A stretch of DNA of 64,000 bases from Bacteroidota bacterium (GTDB taxonomy: Bacteria > Bacteroidota > Bacteroidia > CAILMK01): assembly GCA_013288555.1 (NCBI GenBank), contig JABDBQ010000006.1, positions 20,628 to 84,627 on the forward strand, read 5' to 3'. The translations under genes were made by a program, and so were the position numbers. Of this stretch, positions 50,605 to 62,286 are shown piece after piece; the stretch's first letter is position 1; each line of letters opens with the position of its first letter. The notes beneath the pieces were generated by a model, which worked only from the letters and a program-made list of their open reading frames with translations, did not search any database and had not been told where the DNA came from.

Positions 50605-50607
50605 TCC

Positions 50608-50757
50608 CCATGCTCTTCAGGATTTGCAATCCTGAAGTATAGCGTATGAGGATTTGTAATCCTTTTTTGAATCGATATAGCAATATGTATCTGTTATTTT
50701 ACGGACTGCAAGTCCTGATACTCAAAGGTCGAGACTGCAAATCACGACCAGAGGGGG
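50608..50757 (+). repeat. ~150-bp composite hairpin repeat (family C, ends in a family-A-like module), copy 1
   Basis: ccatgctcttcAGGATTtgcAATCCTgaagtat...AGGATTtgtAATCC...GGACTgcaAGTCCtgatactcaaaggtcgag...gaccagaggggg. A direct repeat of 51851..51997. Confidence 0.85.
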
Positions 50758-51322: not shown

Positions 51323-51850
51323 ATTTAGTAAGGATATATACACGAAGTTAACATCTATTCTTTTTAACAAGTTCAATTTGTTAAAAAACGCCTAAACTCT
51401 TCGGATTATTCCGGTTTATGAGGAGGGTGGTTCGGTCGATTAACACGAATCCAGGGATAACTTTCCAAATGGCAGGGTAGTCGGGACAAGTTGTGCTAAT
51501 GAGGGCAGGGGAATCAATGTGCGAATATGCAAATGTGCGAATATGCAAATTGATGAAAAATGATATCTCGTGATTTACCACCAAAGCCGTAAGTAGGGAT
51601 TCCCCCTTCCAAAGGGGGCAGGGGGATTTTACGCTCGCGTCAGCAAATTCCCCTCCTTTAGCAAGGAGGGGTGGCCTTTAGGCCGGGGTGGTTCGGTCGA
51701 TTAACACCAATCTTTATATGATTCTCCAAATGGCAGGGGTGTGTTCTACTACTCTCGCGCCAGCCTCCCTCTTTGAAGAGGGCAGGGAGATGAATACTCC
51801 CGCGACAGCAAACTCGCTCTCCGCACTCCCGCTCTCCGCACTCACTCCGC

Positions 51851-51997
51851 CCATGCTCTTCAAAATTTGCAATCCTGAAGTATGGCATATGAGGATTTGT
51901 AATCCGGTTTTGAATCGATATAGCAATAAGTAATGTTATTTACGGACTGCAAGTCCTGATACTCAAAGGTCGAGATTGCAAATCCCGACCAGGGGGG
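51851..51997 (+). repeat. Family C composite repeat, copy 2
   Basis: A direct repeat of 50608..50757. It truncates the hsdM stub at 51997. Confidence 0.85.
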
Positions 51998-52095
51998 AGC
52001 TGCTCCAGGTAATCTCCATACCCGACCCCATCATCCCTGAGGGTATTGCAGAAACTCCATACTTTAGATACGATCGCGGAATTGTTGTTTGACAT
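51997..52095 (-). pseudogene. hsdM: hsdM 5' stub (type I R-M methylase, codons 1-33 only)
   Basis: MSNNNSAIVSKVWSFCNTLRDDGVGYGDYLEQL compares with the EcoKI HsdM N-terminus MNNNDLVAKLWKLCDNLRDGGVSYQNYVNEL. The frame then runs into repeat C2. Confidence 0.7.
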
Positions 52096-52096
52096 T

Positions 52097-53602
52097 TTAT
52101 TTTTTAATCTTTTCCATTGCTTTGCTCGTTAAATAGTATCCCCCAGTATTTGCGGACGTGCCTCTAAATTCTATTAGATCAACGCTTCGTAGTTTCTTTA
52201 GGTACCTTTCTAAACTGCCATATGAATAGCTGGTTTCATCCTGATATTCAGGAATTCTAAGACCTTCATTTAGTGCAATTACAAATAAAACATGTACAAG
52301 TTTTTCTTTTACTCCTTTAGTTGCTCCTTCAATTGCTCCTTCAATTACTCCTTCAACAATTCTCCATTTTTCATTAGCATATACACCATCAGTTACTCCT
52401 TCACTTACACCATCACTTGCACCATCAGGTTCCAATTTTAAAGGAATAGTTGTTCTGAACGTGTCTTCATCAATAAATGAGGGGATAGTTCCTGGGCTGT
52501 AAATCGTTAAATATTTGGTAATGTTTCGAATACCGGAGCCTAATTCTTCAACCCGGCCCAACTGGGCGAAAAACCTCGCAATTGTAGGATTTTTAGGGAA
52601 TGGCGAAAATTTTTGAGGATTAATGGGGCCATGCCTGATTGGTTTATTTGCATTGTCTGTTTCGACACCGTCTTTGTAAATAATAAACTGGGCAGGGCTT
52701 GCATTGGTATATTCTCTATGGACAATAAGATTAGCTACTACTTCTCTAAAAATCCAGTCCCTCACATTAGTGCGCTGATCCCCCGAAATATAGAAACGAT
52801 CTGGAAGATGTTTGCCAACAAAGCCCATTAACAGGTCATAGGCTTCCAGAAGGTTTGTGCGGATATCCAGCCTGTCATCATATCTGTCCGTATTTTCTTT
52901 CCTTAATAGGGCGTCCGTTCTATAATGCGGCAATACAGAATGGATAACTTCGTCCCGGCCCAGTAATAAAACCGCTGCGAGCGTATATCCGTCATTCCCG
53001 GTTTTATAATCTAGTTGCCAAAGCCCTGCGCTTGCGAGAAATTGATCGTCAGGTAAAGCAAGCCAGGGATGGTCCGGCGTGTTGCTTCTGATAAGCTGCC
53101 GGGCCTTATCAAGCAGGCCTGGTTTAAAATCGCTAATCTTAATATATGGGAATATCTGATTTTCTGTGTAATAAGCAGATTTACGTGTATATATTCTGCT
53201 TATATCAACATCTGATTTTACCTTTATATCGGCATCTGCAACACGGTCATATACTATTCCATCGCAACGATGCACCTGTGAACTTTGTGGTACGTAAGTA
53301 TAAAGGATAGTGTCATTTCCAATTGTAGCCTCGAATAAATCAAGTAGATACGGTGGGTTCAATTTGCTGGGATTATTGCTGATCGTTGCAAAATCTGCTT
53401 TGATCTTTGAAACATTTGCCCGATCAACACCTATAATAGTTCCATTGTCTTTTACACCAAGCAAAATATAACCACCTTGTCTGTTGAGGAAAGCACAAAC
53501 GGATTCGAATACAGTGTTTGGTAAAGCCCAGCCAGATTCCTTAAATTCTACAGCGTTTCCTTCACCGTGATCAATAATGTGCCTAATTTGTTCCTCCGTC
53601 AT
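52097..53602 (-). CDS. AlbA_2 (Schlafen-like) DNA-binding domain + HATPase_c_4-type ATP-binding protein
   Basis: 'HGEGNAVEFKES...GGYILLGV' is AlbA_2. 'ANLIVHREY' is the ATPase-like core. There is an (E/D)GV-rich repeat 'DGASDGVSEGVTDGV...EGVIEGAIEGA' and a C-terminal wHTH-like region. Confidence 0.65.
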   Translation of the reverse strand: MTEEQIRHIIDHGEGNAVEFKESGWALPNTVFESVCAFLNRQGGYILLGVKDNGTIIGVDRANVSKIKADFATISNNPSKLNPPYLLDLFEATIGNDTILYTYVPQSSQVHRCDGIVYDRVADADIKVKSDVDISRIYTRKSAYYTENQIFPYIKISDFKPGLLDKARQLIRSNTPDHPWLALPDDQFLASAGLWQLDYKTGNDGYTLAAVLLLGRDEVIHSVLPHYRTDALLRKENTDRYDDRLDIRTNLLEAYDLLMGFVGKHLPDRFYISGDQRTNVRDWIFREVVANLIVHREYTNASPAQFIIYKDGVETDNANKPIRHGPINPQKFSPFPKNPTIARFFAQLGRVEELGSGIRNITKYLTIYSPGTIPSFIDEDTFRTTIPLKLEPDGASDGVSEGVTDGVYANEKWRIVEGVIEGAIEGATKGVKEKLVHVLFVIALNEGLRIPEYQDETSYSYGSLERYLKKLRSVDLIEFRGTSANTGGYYLTSKAMEKIKK

Positions 53603-53637
53603 CCGACAAAAATAAGAAATATGCAAGGAAGTGAGTG

Positions 53638-53712
53638 GCCGACCCCATCATCCCTGAGGGTATTGCAGAAACTCCATACTTTGGAGACGATCGCGGAATT
53701 GTTGTTGCTCAT
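53638..53712 (-). pseudogene. hsdM: Second hsdM 5' stub (codons 1-25)
   Basis: MSNNNSAIVSKVWSFCNTLRDDGVG, then unrelated sequence. It differs from the other stub only at synonymous positions. Confidence 0.7.
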
Positions 53713-53765
53713 ATTATCTAAATTTCAGATAGACAATTACTTCTTTTTTAAAATTTACGATGCTT

Positions 53766-54689
53766 TTAATCAAGCTTTTCTAAATCCTTGTCTGTGTTTA
53801 TTATTATAATAGCTTGTGGCTTATAGGACCTGTCAGTATTGCGCTCGTTTCGGACTAAAAAATCCTGAATTAATTGTTCTTTGCTTGATTTTATTATGGG
53901 TATAAGTCCTCCATTTTCAGGAAATAACTCAAGCAAGTAATCTGCAAAAAAGAAAAAGAAAAATTTTGCGCTTTTAAATTTGTTTTGCGCTTTCTTTTTC
54001 TTGTTATATTCTTCAGCCATTTCAATTGTAAAATATGCAAGATCATGAAATGGAATAGCTGCTTGAACATTTATAAGATGTTTCTCTATCTCCCCCGGAT
54101 TATATTTAAAATAGGGATGTCGAAAAACAGGAAACATTCCTGATTTATGTAATTCAGAAAAGGATATTTGGTTATTTATCGCAGATTTCATTTTAGATGT
54201 AGTCGTTATTGTTATTCCCATCGACTCTTTATCAAAGTCAGTAAAAGAATTATAATATTGTTCTAGATCTAAATCATTAATATCTAAATATTTATAAAGC
54301 GCAAATAGGGGAATCCCCTCTTTATTAACTTCTTTTGAATAACTCTCCATGTCGTTAATCTGATCTATTGAAATACCCTTATAAGTTCCATTCACAGAAT
54401 AGTCATAAATTTGACTTTTGGCTTGTATGTAATATCGTACGAATTTATTCTTAGAAACACTTCCAAGACATAATTCAAAATCATACCCCTCTTTAGCTTC
54501 CCGAATAGGACCTATCATTTTAATCGTATCAATATCTTTACAATTACTATTGGCCAAAACTTTTAAGGCCATAGATGTTAAGCCTTCTTCGCGAACTTGA
54601 AATATATTATACTTTTTGTCAGATAGAGGAGGGGTCATTTCTTCCCAAATCTTATAAGAGGCTTGTTTTAGTGCTTTTTCTAAATTCAT
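53766..54689 (-). CDS. Hypothetical protein with a PD-(D/E)xK-nuclease-like N-terminal core
   Basis: E64...D70-F-E72...Y-I-Q89-A-K91 with predicted beta-strand spacing. The C-terminal half is unrecognised and contains a KKKK/FFFFFF low-complexity tract. Confidence 0.45.
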   Translation of the reverse strand: MNLEKALKQASYKIWEEMTPPLSDKKYNIFQVREEGLTSMALKVLANSNCKDIDTIKMIGPIREAKEGYDFELCLGSVSKNKFVRYYIQAKSQIYDYSVNGTYKGISIDQINDMESYSKEVNKEGIPLFALYKYLDINDLDLEQYYNSFTDFDKESMGITITTTSKMKSAINNQISFSELHKSGMFPVFRHPYFKYNPGEIEKHLINVQAAIPFHDLAYFTIEMAEEYNKKKKAQNKFKSAKFFFFFFADYLLELFPENGGLIPIIKSSKEQLIQDFLVRNERNTDRSYKPQAIIIINTDKDLEKLD

Positions 54690-54700
54690 AACATAATTTT

Positions 54701-54793
54701 TTACACCAATTTCCCTTCAAATGCCTTTTTCAATATACTTTGCCGGAGGGTTTCGGCTTGTTGGAGGCTGTTGTTTATGGTTTCTTCTACTTT
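54701..54793 (-). pseudogene. hsdS: hsdS 3' stub (type I R-M specificity subunit C-terminal helix)
   Basis: Hand translation gives KVEETINNSLQQAETLRQSILKKAFEGKLV*, which carries the conserved HsdS C-terminus '...LRQSILKKAFxGxLV'. Confidence 0.65.
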
Positions 54794-54841
54794 ATTGTAA
54801 TATTTTATCAAAGTAATATTTACATTTAGACATTTATTATC

Positions 54842-57034
54842 TTATAATACGCATTCAAAAATACCTCTAACTTCTAAAGCATATAGTTCATCCCCTTGAA
54901 GTTCTAAATTTTTATAGTCATCATTATTACTTAATGGTTTGAGTGTTATTGACTCGTGTTGCCATTGATTATTTTCAACGATTTTCTTACTGTGATATTC
55001 TTTAACAGTATATGCAGATCCCGAATCAGGATCCTGTCGGCCACTAAGTTCTACTAAAACAATTTTTCCATTTCTTGATCCGCCTGTATATTTTCTAAAC
55101 AAGCAAATGGATCCATTTGGAATTATCTTATTCATGGATTCACCTTCAATCCTGCAAGCAAATAAATCTTTAGACGCTTTGTATCTGGATGGTATTTTAA
55201 CCCATTCATAATCTTCAGTATTGACAATCTGTGTTTCTGAAAAATTTCCGGCCGCAGCCCTTAAATTATAGAGAGGAACGCTGTTTTCATACGGATTAAC
55301 TTCCTCAATAGGAATAATCGGAGTGGGTTGTTCTACTTTATAATTTGCAATATGTTTTGAAAAATAGTCCCTGAGATTTTCATCACAAACATAGATATAT
55401 GTGCCTTTAATGCCTCTGAGCATAATAGTTTTATAAATGTTTATGATAAACTGTTTTAATGCTTCAGGATCGGATATCCCTTGGTAACCGTTTCTGTCAA
55501 AATAATTCTCCGACTTTATAATGATTTCATCATTGACTTTATCATAGCTGATTTCATTACCAAAAATGATTCCCCCGTAGTTTAAATCATATCCCTGAGT
55601 GGTGTGAATACATCCAACTTCGTTGATTGAATTCTCAGAATTCACCCAATCGATATTGCCACTATTCCATTTCAATTCCAGGTTGTCTATTTTAATATCG
55701 TACAGGTTTGGATCTTTCTGTGATACCCATTTCCAGGAGTATCCGGCGACCAATCTTGCTAAGCCATTTTCAGTATTTCTCAGCCTGATCTGCCTCTGCA
55801 TATCCTCCAGAGAATCGAACATGAGAAACTCATAATCGGGAGAATCAAATACTTTTTTTGTTGGTTCAAGTTTGCAATTCAGAAGGTCATCTATATATTT
55901 AACATAGTCATTTCCACCCCTAACCCTGAATTGAGATTTTAGATATTCTATTTTAGTAAGCCTATTGAGTTTTAACTTGTCGAAATCTTCTTTTTTGGCA
56001 TCGGATGGCTTTATTGATTGATTTTCATCATAAAACAAGATTGCCTTTGAAGATTGTTTTAGAATCCAGTCCAATTCGCTGCAAGTGTTTTTATCCAACT
56101 GCAGTTTACTGCAGACCTGATCGAATACGCCAAAATAAGTCCCTAAATTCACTCGTCGCCTCAATCGATGTGACTCATCAACAATAAGAATATCAAACTT
56201 AGTATCAGCAACCTCAGAAGGCCCGATAGCCATGCTCGCCTTTAGGCCTTTGACATTTGCAAAAACTTTTTTTAGCGTTTTCCGAAATGAAGACATTGGC
56301 ACAACCAATGCCATTTTGGGATCAGGATACTTAATCTTTAGCTCGAATATTAATTCTTTAAATTCAAGTTCATCATATTCAAACTCGTTGAAATTGAAGT
56401 CTTCGATATTTGTATTAAGCAACTTGAAAAGAAAAGTTGCTAAAATAGTTTTTCCTGTTCCTGCGCCGCCTTCAATGACAATATTTTTGAAGTTGTCGTT
56501 AAGCAAACACTTAATAATCACCAGTAAACCGCGTCGCTGTTCTGTACTTAGACTTTTATAGGGCGAGTATTTAAACAAATCAGAATTGTCGATATATTCA
56601 ATAGAATGTTTTGATATACCTTCGGTTCTTAATTTGTCCCAGATTGATTTGAAAATGTCCAAGTATACTTCCTTTTTTTGGTAGTAATTATGATTTGCTA
56701 ATCCTGCGTTTCCATTTTGTAATTTGTATTGCCCGTCACCTGAAATATATTTTATCAGGTTAGATTCAATATCTAAAGTGGCTGATTTATTAAACTTACC
56801 GCTCGTAATTAGGTGAACTGCGGTTAGTTTACTTTTTGATTTGCTTTTTAGATGCGTGGTTATCCTGGCGTAGGTATCAGTTGTCTCACCTACATATGCT
56901 TCTTTGATATTACCATCGCTTAAAATATAGACTATCGGCCATAAGTCCTTCGCGTAGTGGAGATTTTGAAATTTATCAATGACCCCGGGATTGAATTCAA
57001 ACTTATTTATGATGAAGTCATTATGCAGGTTCAT
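54842..57034 (-). CDS. GIY-YIG nuclease / DUF2075 (Schlafen-type) P-loop NTPase / S24 LexA-like peptidase fusion protein
   Basis: GIY-YIG: 'IVYIL-x9-YVGET', R, 'DIESNLI', 'LQNGN'. Walker A is 'GGAGTGKT' and Walker B is 'ILIVDESHRL'. S24: 'VPLYNLRAAAGNF' (Ala595-Gly596), 'GESM' (Ser633), 'YTVKEY' (Lys678). Confidence 0.8.
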   Translation of the reverse strand: MNLHNDFIINKFEFNPGVIDKFQNLHYAKDLWPIVYILSDGNIKEAYVGETTDTYARITTHLKSKSKSKLTAVHLITSGKFNKSATLDIESNLIKYISGDGQYKLQNGNAGLANHNYYQKKEVYLDIFKSIWDKLRTEGISKHSIEYIDNSDLFKYSPYKSLSTEQRRGLLVIIKCLLNDNFKNIVIEGGAGTGKTILATFLFKLLNTNIEDFNFNEFEYDELEFKELIFELKIKYPDPKMALVVPMSSFRKTLKKVFANVKGLKASMAIGPSEVADTKFDILIVDESHRLRRRVNLGTYFGVFDQVCSKLQLDKNTCSELDWILKQSSKAILFYDENQSIKPSDAKKEDFDKLKLNRLTKIEYLKSQFRVRGGNDYVKYIDDLLNCKLEPTKKVFDSPDYEFLMFDSLEDMQRQIRLRNTENGLARLVAGYSWKWVSQKDPNLYDIKIDNLELKWNSGNIDWVNSENSINEVGCIHTTQGYDLNYGGIIFGNEISYDKVNDEIIIKSENYFDRNGYQGISDPEALKQFIINIYKTIMLRGIKGTYIYVCDENLRDYFSKHIANYKVEQPTPIIPIEEVNPYENSVPLYNLRAAAGNFSETQIVNTEDYEWVKIPSRYKASKDLFACRIEGESMNKIIPNGSICLFRKYTGGSRNGKIVLVELSGRQDPDSGSAYTVKEYHSKKIVENNQWQHESITLKPLSNNDDYKNLELQGDELYALEVRGIFECVL

Positions 57035-57375
57035 AACTCATCATATTTTTTTGCGGTTCCCCTGGCTTTATCTACCGGATATTTTACAGAATTTATTTTG
57101 ATCTTTTCACGAATAATGTCATTTACATCGAAACCATATTTTTCAGCAATCAGGAAAGCATATGTGAATATATCAGCTAATTCTTCTTTTACTTTTTCTT
57201 TGTTTGCTGATTCAGCATCTTTCCACAAAAAGAGTTCTAACAATTCGCTAGTTTCAATATTCAATGCGATCGCCAGATCCTTCGGATTATGGAATTGTTT
57301 CCAATCCCTTTCATCGCGGAATTTTATTATCTCAGCGATTATTTCATCAAAATCATTCATTGGATTATCTGGCAT
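57031..57375 (-). CDS. MazG-like nucleotide pyrophosphohydrolase (single-domain)
   Basis: 'RDERDWKQFHNPKDLAIALNIETSELLELFLWK' and 'VKEELADIFTYAFLIA' are EExxE / EExxD metal-binding helices. A 4-nt overlap joins it to the 730-aa gene. Confidence 0.75.
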   Translation of the reverse strand: MPDNPMNDFDEIIAEIIKFRDERDWKQFHNPKDLAIALNIETSELLELFLWKDAESANKEKVKEELADIFTYAFLIAEKYGFDVNDIIREKIKINSVKYPVDKARGTAKKYDEL

Positions 57376-57877
57376 TTCTTAATTGCATGCAATTGAGAGG
57401 CAAGTTAGGTAAAAAACAATATGGCATACAAATCGGGAATTACGTTTTGCAAATAGGTTGATGCATCTAAGTCAGCTCAGTTCGTAAATGAAGGGATTGC
57501 GGGTCAGGCTGAGGCAAGCTCAAGCCGCCTGCAATGACGACTTCTACAAGGATTTTTTAGTAAAAGTTAAAACATTTTCAAAAATATTTTCGCTTGTAAT
57601 CCCCCTGTCGTTTCGAATCTTAACTAAGAGAGATTCGTGACTTTGTCACCTGCCCCTGAAGCAGTCCCCGTAGAGATGGGAGGCTCAGCCCTTCGACCGC
57701 TTCGACCCCTTCGACTGCTTCGACAAGCTCGGGAAACAGAGAGCGAGAGAGCGGAGAGCAGGGGCAAACTCAGGGAGCGGGTTTTTCAATTGCCAACATA
57801 TTACTAACAAACACTAACACTATTATTGTTGGTAGTTGGCAGATTCAATCAGGAATGATGAGGGCGGCACATAGTAA

Positions 57878-58726
57878 TTATGAATTGCTGTCATCCTTTT
57901 CTTTTGTTTTCGCCGGCAAGGTTTTTTTGGCGTTTAACGCAGAGACTACTTTTTTGCCCGTCCTTGCTTCCAGCTCCTTTCTTGCTACTTTTGCCACGTT
58001 TCCACCTTGCCTCGCCACTTTTTTGCTTTCTTCGAAACTGGCGGGATTTACGGCTTGAGAAATATCTTTTGTTGAGGCTTCTGCAAGCATATTCAGGATC
58101 AACTCCGTATTGGTCATGTTATCCTTCAGATTTTCCTTTTTCAAGCCTTTAAAGGTTTTGTATTCTTTTGTAGTTTTATCAGCCCAGACCTTAGTAATGA
58201 TATCAGTAAGCGTTGCGAATTGAGTACCGGCCTTGAGCCCGCGCTTTTTCCATTCATCGGTAAGTTCTTTTCGGATTTCAATACTTTTCAGGCGTTGGTT
58301 TATCCAGTTTTCAGAGTATCCCATTTGCAGGTACTGTTCCAAAGCCCTGTCAATGCTGAGTTCAGGGTCCTGCATTTCATCAAGCCTTTCGGAAGCCACT
58401 TTTGCCAACCAGAGTTTAAAAGGTTCGGCTTTGGGTGAAGGAATAGACTGTATAAGCCTGAAAAGTTGTTCAGTATCAGCCACATCAGTCATTCGCATTT
58501 TCCCGTCAGGTGCAAGCAATTTCAAACCGTTACAATTTGTAACGGTTTCGTTTCCCTCGTCTTTTAGCCTTTTCTTCATGACACGCCAGTATACCTGTGG
58601 ATTGGGGCTTTCTGTTAAGGCAGCAATTATATCAACAATGGCAAATAGCCACTTCTCCTCAGTTCCGTCCCAAACAGTCCTGACTTTTTTATCTTCAAAT
58701 ATTTTAACAGTGTCCTTTTTATTCAT
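57878..58726 (-). CDS. BRO-N domain protein (phage antirepressor-like)
   Basis: 'KIFEDKKVRTVWDGTEEKWLFAIVDIIAALTES...' is Bro-N-like, followed by a helical C-terminal region. Confidence 0.6.
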   Translation of the reverse strand: MNKKDTVKIFEDKKVRTVWDGTEEKWLFAIVDIIAALTESPNPQVYWRVMKKRLKDEGNETVTNCNGLKLLAPDGKMRMTDVADTEQLFRLIQSIPSPKAEPFKLWLAKVASERLDEMQDPELSIDRALEQYLQMGYSENWINQRLKSIEIRKELTDEWKKRGLKAGTQFATLTDIITKVWADKTTKEYKTFKGLKKENLKDNMTNTELILNMLAEASTKDISQAVNPASFEESKKVARQGGNVAKVARKELEARTGKKVVSALNAKKTLPAKTKEKDDSNS

Positions 58727-58819
58727 AATAATGCTGCTTTGTACAAAGATCGGATAAGCAATGCAAGTTAAACAAAAATAAAAAAGTAAAACATTTTCAA
58801 AAATATTTTCGCTTGTAAT

Positions 58820-60002: not shown

Positions 60003-61034
60003 ACAAAATAGCTGCTATTTTATGTCCTATATCCATATCATTCAGCAATTAAATCTTTATACCTTAGAACCTTATTTGACTGTAAAATAGCAGTATGGAA
60101 GCGTTCGCCCTCTGACATTTTGCGTGTGTTGTACCGGAATGCAAACTCATCGCAATAGCGGTGTAAATGCTTAGGACTGGCGGAATGATAAACGCCATAA
60201 ATACCACGTTTCAAACCGCCCCAAAAACCTTCTATTGCATTTGTATTATATCCTTCCCTTGCATATTCTCTGAATTTATGGTTTACCGCTTCATGTTGAA
60301 ATCCTAAAGCGGTTGGAATAGTGCGGTAAAGGTGAAAGTTATCTGTTACTATTGTAGAGCCTTTAGAGACGTTCTCACGTATCAAAGGAAAGATATGAGC
60401 CTTTGTAACCATTGGCACAACCTGAACAACCACAGAACCCTTAGTTTCGCTCAATCCAATAACAACGGTTTTGTCATTTGATCTTCCGGCTAAACTCTTT
60501 TTACCTTTCCTGATCCTTAAATTCTTTTCTGCCTTACCTGAATAGCTTTGATGCTTGTTAGATTCTTTTCCGCCAAAATATGCTTCATCTACTTGCACGT
60601 TTCCCGATAACAGACCGCTTTCAGATTTTAACATCAATCTAATCCGTGAAAGCATAAACCAAGCGGTTTTTTGTGTTACCTCAATATCTTTTGCCAACTG
60701 ATGCGAACTGATTCCTTTTTTATGTGATGAAGCTATATAAATGGCCGCAAACCACTTTGTTAAAGGAATTTTAGAACCGTCCAAAATAGTCCCAACGGTT
60801 ACAGTGAACTTTTTATAGCATTGGTTATTGCTACATTTATACGTTTTGCCATCATTCAAAACATAAGCGTTTCCACGGTTGCAACGTGGGCAAATGGGAT
60901 TCCCTTTCCAACGTGCAAACTCTATGTATTTTCTGCAAGCCTGTTCAGTTGAAAAGTATCGCTGAACCGCAAGTAAAGAGTTTAATTTGCTGAAATTAAA
61001 TTGATTTTCTGTTCGCATAAGTAACTATATTTGT
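60003..61034 (-). mobile_element. IS1595-family insertion sequence (ends tentative)
   Basis: A transposase gene plus weak imperfect terminal inverted repeats (60003..60020 versus the reverse complement of 61017..61034, ~12/18). No clear target duplication was seen. Confidence 0.45.
60038..61018 (-). CDS. IS1595 family transposase
   Basis: N-terminal zinc ribbon 'CPRCNRGNAY...YKCSNNQCYKKFTV', 'ISSHQLAKDIEVTQKTAWFMLSRIR', and an ISXO2-like DDE domain 'VQVDEAYFGG'. Confidence 0.88.
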   Translation of the reverse strand: MRTENQFNFSKLNSLLAVQRYFSTEQACRKYIEFARWKGNPICPRCNRGNAYVLNDGKTYKCSNNQCYKKFTVTVGTILDGSKIPLTKWFAAIYIASSHKKGISSHQLAKDIEVTQKTAWFMLSRIRLMLKSESGLLSGNVQVDEAYFGGKESNKHQSYSGKAEKNLRIRKGKKSLAGRSNDKTVVIGLSETKGSVVVQVVPMVTKAHIFPLIRENVSKGSTIVTDNFHLYRTIPTALGFQHEAVNHKFREYAREGYNTNAIEGFWGGLKRGIYGVYHSASPKHLHRYCDEFAFRYNTRKMSEGERFHTAILQSNKVLRYKDLIAE

Positions 61035-61530: not shown

Positions 61531-62286
61531 AAGGGGAGTTCGCTATATATGTAAGTAAAACTAAGGCGTAAGGGATAAGGCGTAAGGCGTAAGGCGTAAG
61601 TCAATTTGGAAATTTGAGTCCCGTGCATTCGGGATGGGAATGCCTTGCCAGCGGACAATGGGCGAGAGAATCATGCTTATCATTTAATCATGTGAATCAT
61701 GGTTCAGACAATTACTCGCGAGAGGATTAATGAATTATATCTGCGGGAATCAGATTTAGCTCCGCTGAGCCCTTCGGGGTTCTCCTTGGGGTCGAGATGA
61801 CAAATGCATTGTATACTAAAGACTTACGAGAGTAGTCATGCGTCAGCCACTTACGCCTTACGCCTTATGCCTTATGCCTGAAACAGTTATATAAATGAAA
61901 GTTAAAATGTATAAGCCAAACCGTAAAAATGTACACCCAAACGTGACACTTAACCCGCTCATTTCAAGCAGATAAAGCCAAAATGTTAAAGAAAAAATCA
62001 AAAATGTACGCTATAGTGAACAGCAAGGAATCAGGGAATGAATGGGTTGGGCCCTTTGGGAAGTTCAGGAACGGTAGGGTTTGTTGTACAAAGTGTGATG
62101 GTAATCGACGGAACCACCCTCCCGAAGAAGTCGGGACAGGCGCCCTCTGGGCACCCCTCCTTAAAGGGAAGGAGGGGAATGGTGCTACTTCCACCATTGG
62201 TGGTATATCAGCAGAAGTGAATTTTCAGTTCAATTTTCAAATTGTCTTATTGCCTCATTTTCAAATTGTCTAATTGTCTCATTGCC

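Follow-up and report, generated by a model that had tools for sequence, protein, structure and literature searches.

Why would a LexA-type self-cleaving protease domain be carried by a nuclease-helicase, and what could its cleavage do to such an enzyme? This question is raised by a 730-residue protein encoded on the minus strand at 54842..57034 of the window, by which is meant the whole 64,000-nucleotide stretch analysed here (contig JABDBQ010000006.1, positions 20,628 to 84,627, from the Bacteroidota bacterium assembly GCA_013288555.1). The open reading frame (ORF) is genuine and codes for 730 amino acids (aa), the coordinates including the stop codon, and the ORF list, Pfam, a homologue search and re-translation together describe its product as a GIY-YIG nuclease, superfamily 1B (SF1B) helicase and S24 peptidase. 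The best reading, to which we give a probability of about 0.35, is that the C-terminal domain would be an autoproteolytic switch of the LexA type responding to RecA* (RecA filaments on single-stranded DNA, ssDNA). It would be placed on the nuclease-helicase of a module partnered by a MazG-like protein, and its action leans towards that of a 'fuse'.

The C-terminal S24 domain and its catalytic residues

The peptidase domain, including its cleavage-site region, takes up residues 586-730 (54845..55279, minus strand) and was delimited by PF00717, AlphaFold2, Foldseek, a profile search and hhalign. Pfam Peptidase_S24 (PF00717) covers residues 587-714 with an E-value of 6.3e-9, and as its 36.0 bits lie above the gathering score of 23.3, the match does not reflect a motif arisen by chance. 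In the PDB, neither the full-length sequence nor the C-terminus retrieved an S24 structure when searched singly; a profile of 50 family members matched Thermotoga LexA (3k2z) there, with the Ala-Gly and G-x-S-M segments in register. An earlier reading of this gene, made from the letters alone and called here the sequence-only reading, had predicted an S24 fold, and this was borne out by an AlphaFold2 model of residues 568-730 (mean pLDDT 90.3, pTM 0.85). When this model was compared with the PDB by Foldseek, the top 31 matches were all LexA, lambda CI or UmuD (probability 1.0, best E-value 9.5e-6). These proteins were the exclusive matches down to an E-value of ~0.05, signal peptidases appearing weakly at E-values of at least 0.1, and the best matches were RecA-filament-bound LexA (8trg_I) and a cleavable-form LexA mutant (1jhe_A). 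Similarly, hhalign paired the family profile with E. coli LexA over 124 columns, placing AAG opposite AAG, GESM opposite GMSM and TVKEY opposite TVKRL. The PDB-based matches (3k2z and those from Foldseek) are independent of the E. coli LexA and UmuD sequences used in the residue-level alignments.

Three hallmarks of LexA, UmuD and lambda CI had been recognised in the sequence, namely a scissile Ala-Gly, a Ser in G-x-S-M and a Lys, and all are present and aligned to LexA. The predicted scissile bond Ala595-Gly596 (codons 55247..55252, minus strand, with A595 at 55250..55252 and G596 at 55247..55249) falls opposite A84-G85 of LexA and C24-G25 of UmuD. The predicted nucleophile Ser633 of G-E-S-M (codon 55136..55138, minus strand) is aligned to LexA S119, and the predicted general base Lys678 of T-V-K-E-Y (codon 55001..55003, minus strand) to LexA K156, a register given by profile-to-sequence and profile-profile alignments. 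Re-translation placed these residues at the codons originally assigned to them, with VPLYNLRAAAGNFSE beginning at residue 586, GESMNK at 631 and YTVKEYH at 675; the end coordinate 55276 needs correction, being the first base of codon 587 and not of codon 586. Two details have to be revised. The scissile bond sits in P-L-x5-A-A-G (or P-L-x4-A-A-A-G), which exceeds the LexA context by one residue, and not in P-L-x-x-x-x-A-A-G as claimed. The Ser-Lys spacing of 45, said to lie inside the range from LexA (37) to CI (43), falls just outside it because of an insertion of ~8 residues between two strands. The distance from Ala-Gly to Ser is 37 residues in the window protein; the corresponding distance from Ala/Cys-Gly is 34 in LexA, 37 in CI and 35 in UmuD.

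The expectation that Ser, Lys and Ala-Gly would be conserved among orthologues proved correct. A595, S633 and K678 are invariant, and G596 nearly so, among 59 full-length homologues (67-84% identity). When distinct S24 domains were pooled from proteins and loci, giving a set of 251, Ser was found in 250 of 251, Lys in 249, Gly596 in 247 and Ala595 in 243, with Cys at the last position in 5. The Ser, Lys and Ala-Gly columns of this alignment are among the lowest-entropy positions of the domain, and positions 593-595 read (A/V)-A-A in S24 domains of the window's type. A full S24 domain of that type occurs in 17 of the best 150 representatives in a library clustered at 50%. The divergent representatives that were aligned, whose nuclease-helicase part is 34-54% identical to the query where measured, retain Ser and Lys and have Ala-Gly or Cys-Gly as the scissile pair, with a sole degenerate exception. 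This is the 728-aa representative P0255, which has a decayed S24 tail with P-I-G at the scissile pair, Arg in place of the catalytic Lys and a retained Ser, and may be a natural non-cleavable variant.

The near-invariance of Ser, Lys and Ala/Cys-Gly is best explained by selection for catalysis, and the C-terminal domain is very probably catalytically competent. By fold, dyad and scissile pair the protein belongs to peptidase family S24, in which an Ala-Gly or Cys-Gly pair and a Ser-Lys dyad serve RecA-mediated self-cleavage (PMC8565304). The absence of a helix-turn-helix (HTH) domain was also rightly noted from the sequence: no HTH family was found among the Pfam matches of the 730-aa protein at E-values up to 0.1, and the N-terminal 585 residues are accounted for by GIY-YIG and helicase. 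The protein is therefore not a repressor and stands outside the LexA/CI repressor subfamily.

The nuclease-helicase, its MazG-like partner and the S24 tail

The enzyme to which the S24 module is attached had been described as a nuclease/NTPase, and it is a GIY-YIG nuclease followed by an SF1B helicase. The nuclease core spans residues 34-117 (56684..56935, minus strand), where Pfam GIY-YIG matches residues 34-71 at 23.2 bits, just above the cut-off of 22.6. PF01541 is precomputed on many homologues, and Y36, Y47, G49, R57, H61, E90 and N92 are invariant among the 59 homologues. The helicase domain (DUF2075 / SLFN group-3 helicase; PF09848, SLFN-g3_helicase) spans residues 184-551 (55382..56485, minus strand) with an E-value of 1.7e-61, an assignment supported by structural matches and invariant columns. 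Both its Walker A motif GGAGTGKT (residues 189-196, 56447..56470, minus strand) and Walker B (D286-E287) are intact and invariant among homologues. A full-length model (pLDDT 78, pTM 0.51) gave structural matches to RecD2, Dna2, Upf1 and SLFN11 (7zep/7zel), and the PADLOC Nhi model PDLC02372 (Nhi/AbiO) gave a weak partial match confined to residues 277-417 (E 2.8e-9, 34.2 bits). Judged from its sequence, the protein is a Nhi-like nuclease-helicase with an S24 tail, and the nuclease-helicase is apparently active. Helicase and tail are joined by a linker, residues 552-585 (55280..55381, minus strand), whose length and sequence differ between orthologues in the alignment of divergent representatives.

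The partner gene (57031..57375, minus strand) codes for a MazG-like, DCTPP1-like nucleotide pyrophosphatase of 114 aa from the first ATG, or 109 aa from the alternative start Met6 used by the gene caller elsewhere, and was identified by Pfam MazG-like, a PDB match and its operon position. Its stop codon and the start codon of the large gene overlap as ATGA. The protein matches Pfam MazG-like PF12643 with an E-value of 6.1e-20, and its residues 16-114 align with dCTP pyrophosphatase 1 / RS21-C6 (6sqw, 2a3q) at 1.3e-15. It has the acidic metal ligands E41, E44, E65 and D68, whose E-x-x-E and E-E-x-x-D motifs align with those of 6sqw and 2a3q. Read by eye, the partner sequence contains no Ala-Gly.

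This pairing is a constant feature of the family. A MazG-like gene lies directly upstream of the large gene in all 80 genome loci, ending at or next to its start, and in 153 of 160 loci when those from metagenomes are counted as well; of the loci that lack it, several begin too near a contig end to contain it. Clustering of all flanking ORFs in the 160 loci yielded the operon pair only and no third conserved gene. The window neighbours (a 307-aa ORF, a Schlafen AlbA_2 protein, a Bro-N protein and small ORFs) were considered for this role and rejected, as they are absent from 80 of 80 genome loci. The MazG-like and nuclease-helicase pair is also found without S24, both in metagenome loci (L134, L136, L140 and L156-L158) and on Bacillus thuringiensis megaplasmids, where a 'nucleotide pyrophosphohydrolase' is followed by a 'DUF2075 domain-containing protein'. 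As such, the core is a two-gene module of wide distribution, to which S24 has been added. The sequence-only reading was silent on both the obligatory MazG/DCTPP1-like partner and the optional, swappable S24 tail.

Close and more distant relatives differ in whether they carry the tail. S24 is present in 120 of 120 among the matches listed for the full-length protein, at identities of at least 67%. Most close representatives in the 50%-clustered library are about 560-590 aa long and end right after the helicase, without S24. S24-less and S24-bearing relatives are interleaved by identity of the enzyme part: the S24-less L136, P0245 and P0250 are 53-58% identical to the query, and the S24-bearing P0243 (48%), P0286 (37%) and P0346 (34%) are farther from it than these.

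The tails themselves are of two types. Locus L085 has an enzyme part 66% identical to the query, yet its S24 domain is only ~29% identical to the query's and is more canonical (69 against 36 Pfam bits). This domain is 80% identical to the S24 of P0263, whereas the enzyme parts of L085 and P0263 are 46% identical, and the S24 module has therefore been exchanged between lineages. The second type keeps Cys/Ala-Gly, Ser and Lys in a cleavage context of …PC|G and shares 50-55% identity with true LexA repressors whose N-domains are LexA_DNA_bind or HTH_3. It follows that a genuine LexA C-domain was captured at the same position, and its catalytic apparatus appears to be maintained by selection. The window's own type (type 1) has the family-specific conserved features GGSRNG and a W...H insertion, and scores 36 Pfam bits against 66-69 for the LexA-like type (type 2). 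On pairwise identities, which are the basis of this claim, the S24 tail appears to be optional, with a history of gain, loss and exchange. Since the two types have been swapped across diverged enzymes, we take it that the tail cannot exert its effect through an interface closely co-evolved with the enzyme.

Other arrangements occur in the family, such as a C-terminal HTH_3 instead of S24 in P0379 and an N-terminal HSDR_N in P0244. Among the entries P0121-P0240, many that are named 'S24 family peptidase' or 'LexA', mostly ~190 aa long, start with the helicase end (MLRGIKGTY…), for example the 191-aa P0148 of Flavobacterium humidisoli; because they begin there, they are fragments or mis-called internal starts of the fusion and not stand-alone peptidases. 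Copies 58-68% identical to the Bacteroidota-type gene were seen in metagenome-assembled genomes labelled Bordetella parapertussis, Rhizobium or Rickettsiales (L059, L064, L065 and L077), and these labels are probably binning or labelling errors rather than signs of wide transfer.

Trigger and direction of the proposed switch

In the proposed mechanism, the C-terminal 145 residues would form a LexA-type S24 autoprotease on a variable linker, and the enzyme would be the large subunit beside a DCTPP1-like pyrophosphatase of deoxynucleoside triphosphates (dNTP). RecA-ssDNA filaments arising from DNA damage or phage replication would stabilise the cleavable S24 conformation, whereupon Ser633 and Lys678 would cut Ala595-Gly596 in cis. 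A nuclease-helicase of ~69 kDa (residues 1-595) would thereby be severed from an S24 core of ~15 kDa. In LexA-family proteins this core is the element of dimerisation and RecA docking. RecA* is favoured, if not strongly, as the trigger, and the LexA-derived type-2 tails lend it support. The sequence-only reading, which had suggested cleavage stimulated by RecA* or autocatalytic that would detach or unmask the effector, is thus supported in part, by the fold, the conserved residues, the lack of an HTH and the nature of the enzyme.

Regulation of the operon itself by the SOS response was considered and rejected. Within 250 nt upstream of the MazG-like gene at 149 loci, the Bacteroidota LexA boxes tested (CTAA-N5-TTAG, GGA-N5-TCC and a TTAC-N5-GTAA variant) were not enriched, occurring at 2, 2 and 1 of the 149 loci compared to 1.4, 3.4 and 1.3 in shuffles. 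With no SOS box at the operon, the switch would act post-translationally on the enzyme and not via transcription.

As to the direction of the switch, there is a slight lean to disarming the enzyme over arming it. This lean comes from the logic of LexA and CI, in which cleavage removes dimerisation, from the tolerated swapping of tails, which suggests a generic mechanism, and from the new C-terminus of type-1 proteins, (A/V)-A-A, which would resemble the ClpX signal of cleaved LexA. Cleaved LexA reportedly exposes a latent ClpX signal, V-A-A. Disarming would spare a damaged chromosome, much as type I restriction alleviation does.

Several observations weigh against a disarming switch under RecA* control. 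The fragment 1-595 would closely resemble natural S24-less enzymes, which argues for arming. Cleavage requires the (A/V)AA tail in any case, and this tail is absent from the second S24 type (…PC|G). Furthermore, LexA-like proteins under RecA-independent control exist, IrvR being an example (PMC7101444). The window's type of S24 is only ~20-24% identical to LexA, reaches 36 bits in Pfam and has two insertions, and recognition of RecA* may have been lost in so strongly diverged a domain. The immediate neighbours across the 80 loci are heterogeneous and mostly unrelated housekeeping genes, and it is from genomic context that we infer a defence role for the module.

The same RecA*-stimulated self-cleavage could instead arm the enzyme in the manner of UmuD, with an S24 dimer or tether holding it inactive until it is cut. 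The freed nuclease-helicase would then degrade phage or cellular DNA, leading to abortive infection or to the killing of prophage-induced cells. Cleavage of an S24 protein that activates it is known from UmuD (PMC8565304), immune effectors are repeatedly found to be activated by proteases (10.1101/2025.09.03.673762), and the predicted product 1-595 would nearly equal natural S24-less orthologues (543-580 aa) that are presumably active. However, two unrelated S24 types on enzymes 46-66% identical argue against a co-evolved inhibitory interface, and triggering at every SOS event would cost the cell dearly; arming is regarded as somewhat unlikely. The strong divergence of the window's S24 (GGSRNG and the W...H insertion, 36 against 66-69 Pfam bits), together with the RecA-independent LexA-like proteins already mentioned, could point to self-cleavage with a co-protease other than RecA*. 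Candidates would be a phage protein, the enzyme's own helicase when bound to DNA or ATP, the MazG-like partner, or simply a slow spontaneous timer. Against this, orthologous enzymes bear S24 domains 50-55% identical to LexA C-domains, which points to RecA* as the ancestral input, and such a trigger is judged unlikely.

Two further explanations dispense with self-cleavage. LexA-family C-domains are dimerisation domains, and the S24 tail might have ceased to cleave and only dimerise or dock on RecA filaments, recruiting the enzyme to RecA-coated ssDNA; a few degenerate members exist, such as P0255 with its P-I-G and Lys to Arg change. Yet Ser (250/251), Lys (249/251) and Ala/Cys-Gly are near-invariant and are not required for dimerisation, and we consider this quite improbable. 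A protease acting in trans, signal-peptidase-like, on the MazG-like partner or on a phage protein is hardly credible. S24 and S26 share a fold, and signal peptidases were weak Foldseek matches (E at least 0.1), but an Ala-Gly lies within the domain itself, on the canonical cleavage-site strand and 37 residues ahead of Ser, all strong structural matches are self-cleaving members, and the partner sequence has no Ala-Gly of its own to be cut.

If the RecA*-responsive autoproteolytic switch is real, RecA* sensing can directly control a DNA-degrading enzyme, and the SOS response would have a post-translational branch inside a defence module, where it would serve either to trigger on infection or as a fuse against autoimmunity. 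It would also explain how one family of Nhi-like enzymes distinguishes 'trouble' from ordinary DNA metabolism, or how it spares the damaged host chromosome. A broader view, held tentatively and at somewhat short of even odds, is that the LexA C-domain has repeatedly been captured onto an immune-type nuclease-helicase with a dCTPase-like partner, RecA filaments switching the effector by autoproteolysis. The pairing of nuclease-helicase and DCTPP1-like protein defines an uncharacterised two-gene module that extends from Bacteroidota to Bacillus plasmids, and the swap between two S24 types is a natural experiment that shows the tail as a portable regulatory cassette. The predicted products of ~69 and ~15 kDa and the point mutants S633A, K678A and G596D make the idea cheaply testable.

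Genomic setting and known systems

The GC content is 0.327 at 54001-56000, over the nuclease-helicase gene, compared to ~0.40 for the window and 0.51 at 62-64 kb, which is consistent with horizontal acquisition. The operon lies inside an island of ~11 kb bounded by RNase G and phosphoglycerate mutase, which also carries a Schlafen AlbA_2 protein, a Bro-N protein, an IS1595 transposase and cassette-flanking direct repeats. A phage or prophage origin was considered and rejected: no relative was found in IMG/VR, and INPHARED yielded only distant S24-less helicases and an unrelated repressor S24.

The Schlafen-type protein (509 aa; 52097..53626, minus strand) combines SLFN_AlbA_2 (E 6e-18) with HATPase_c_4 according to Pfam and is not conserved beside the operon elsewhere; prokaryotic proteins of the Schlafen-nuclease type have recently been shown to defend against phage (PMC13056530). 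The ORF of 307 aa (53766..54689, minus strand) lies 152 nt downstream of the S24 gene and has no significant family match, only weak ones to DUF6615 and PDC-S11. It accompanies the operon on one other contig as an identical protein copy (L162). The Bro-N protein (57878..58726, minus strand), just upstream of the operon, matches PADLOC candidate PDC-S13 nearly end to end (E 2.2e-135) as well as phrog_15286 (E 4e-121). The IS1595-family transposase (60038..61018, minus strand; DDE_Tnp_IS1595, E 3.5e-39) also lies inside the island, and inverted GGCGTAA-type repeat blocks ~250 nt apart are found near it at 61564-61879.

Several island genes are bracketed by direct repeats of 92-95% identity. A repeat of ~150 nt surrounds a 102-aa ORF (50607-50756 / 51850-51997), one of 79 nt surrounds the Schlafen AlbA_2 gene (52022-52100 / 53639-53717), and one of 39 nt lies upstream of both the MazG operon and the Bro-N gene (57562-57600 / 58781-58819). 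The 39-nt repeat holds the motif TATTTTTG on the minus strand, which fits the Bacteroidota -7 promoter box TAnnTTTG. Taken together, the repeats give the impression of an array of cassettes or of promoter modules used more than once. Moreover, in the 500-nt spacer between the Bro-N and MazG-like genes, GTCGAAG-like units (…gtcgaagcagtcgaaggggtcgaagcggtcgaaggg…) are repeated in tandem, imperfectly and with high GC content, at 57690-57745 (minus strand).

When three related loci were examined over 20 kb, the operon was found beside HigB / HTH-M78 / PIN pairs, beside MNT-HEPN-like and Gp49-HTH pairs, or in a relaxase/TraG element followed by GmrSD and HNH genes. The wide neighbourhoods of these loci and of the window all contain toxin-antitoxin, mobile-element or defence genes. 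A consistent defence-island neighbourhood was nevertheless rejected: the 137 neighbours include 4 C5 methylases and a few HTH_3, M78 or AbiEii-like genes, and the rest are housekeeping genes.

Full-text literature searches found no paper on S24 fused to a nuclease or helicase, nor on the MazG-DUF2075 pair, and DUF2075 appeared in them neither combined with S24 in a relevant sense nor with MazG or pyrophosphohydrolase. To our knowledge, the well-studied S24 autoproteases are all transcription repressors or the polymerase regulator UmuD. The earlier suggestion that a switch of this kind would be unusual holds in so far as the fusion is undescribed in these searches; it does not hold for rarity, as S24 is carried by 120 of 120 among the matches listed. 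Annotation pipelines already label some members 'DUF2075 / LexA / GIY-YIG', and the fusion is widespread, common in Bacteroidota, yet unstudied.

Parts of the module can be compared with known proteins. The partner keeps the metal-binding motifs of DCTPP1 / RS21-C6 but is bacterial, only 109-114 aa long and translationally coupled to the nuclease-helicase. The helicase domain is homologous to that of the human Schlafen helicase SLFN11 (SLFN-g3_helicase), which links an effector nuclease to ssDNA and replication stress (PMC13056530). SLFN11 has a nuclease of another kind and in another position, and the damage input of the window protein would be S24 and RecA* rather than ssDNA binding by the helicase. 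In overall build the protein resembles Nhi and Nhi-like anti-phage proteins, which also combine an N-terminal nuclease with a DUF2075 SF1B helicase in one polypeptide (10.1101/776245; 10.1101/2022.05.11.491447). However, Nhi of S. epidermidis has a PD-(D/E)XK nuclease where the window protein has GIY-YIG, and the latter further differs in its C-terminal S24 domain and in the MazG/DCTPP1-like gene that is its obligatory partner. For a 'fuse', the nearest parallel is restriction alleviation in type I restriction-modification, where HsdR is degraded by ClpXP upon DNA damage (PMC11109961). An immune enzyme is shut down there post-translationally by proteolysis when host DNA is vulnerable, whereas in the window protein the protease would be built into the enzyme and RecA*-responsive, so that the likeness is one of logic and not of homology.

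For the switch itself, the comparison is with LexA, lambda CI and UmuD (MEROPS S24, PF00717). The N-terminal part is a nuclease-helicase of 585 residues, instead of an HTH domain (LexA, CI) or a 24-residue arm (UmuD), and the S24 domain differs from that of LexA in its two insertions, its Ser-Lys spacing of 45 and its identity of ~20-24%, cleavage being predicted here. It shares with these proteins the fold, the Ser-Lys dyad in G-x-S-M / T-V-K and a scissile Ala-Gly (Cys-Gly in some orthologues, as in UmuD) in a strand-loop ~35 residues upstream, and also the overall topology of a functional N-terminal part, linker, cleavage site and S24 core.

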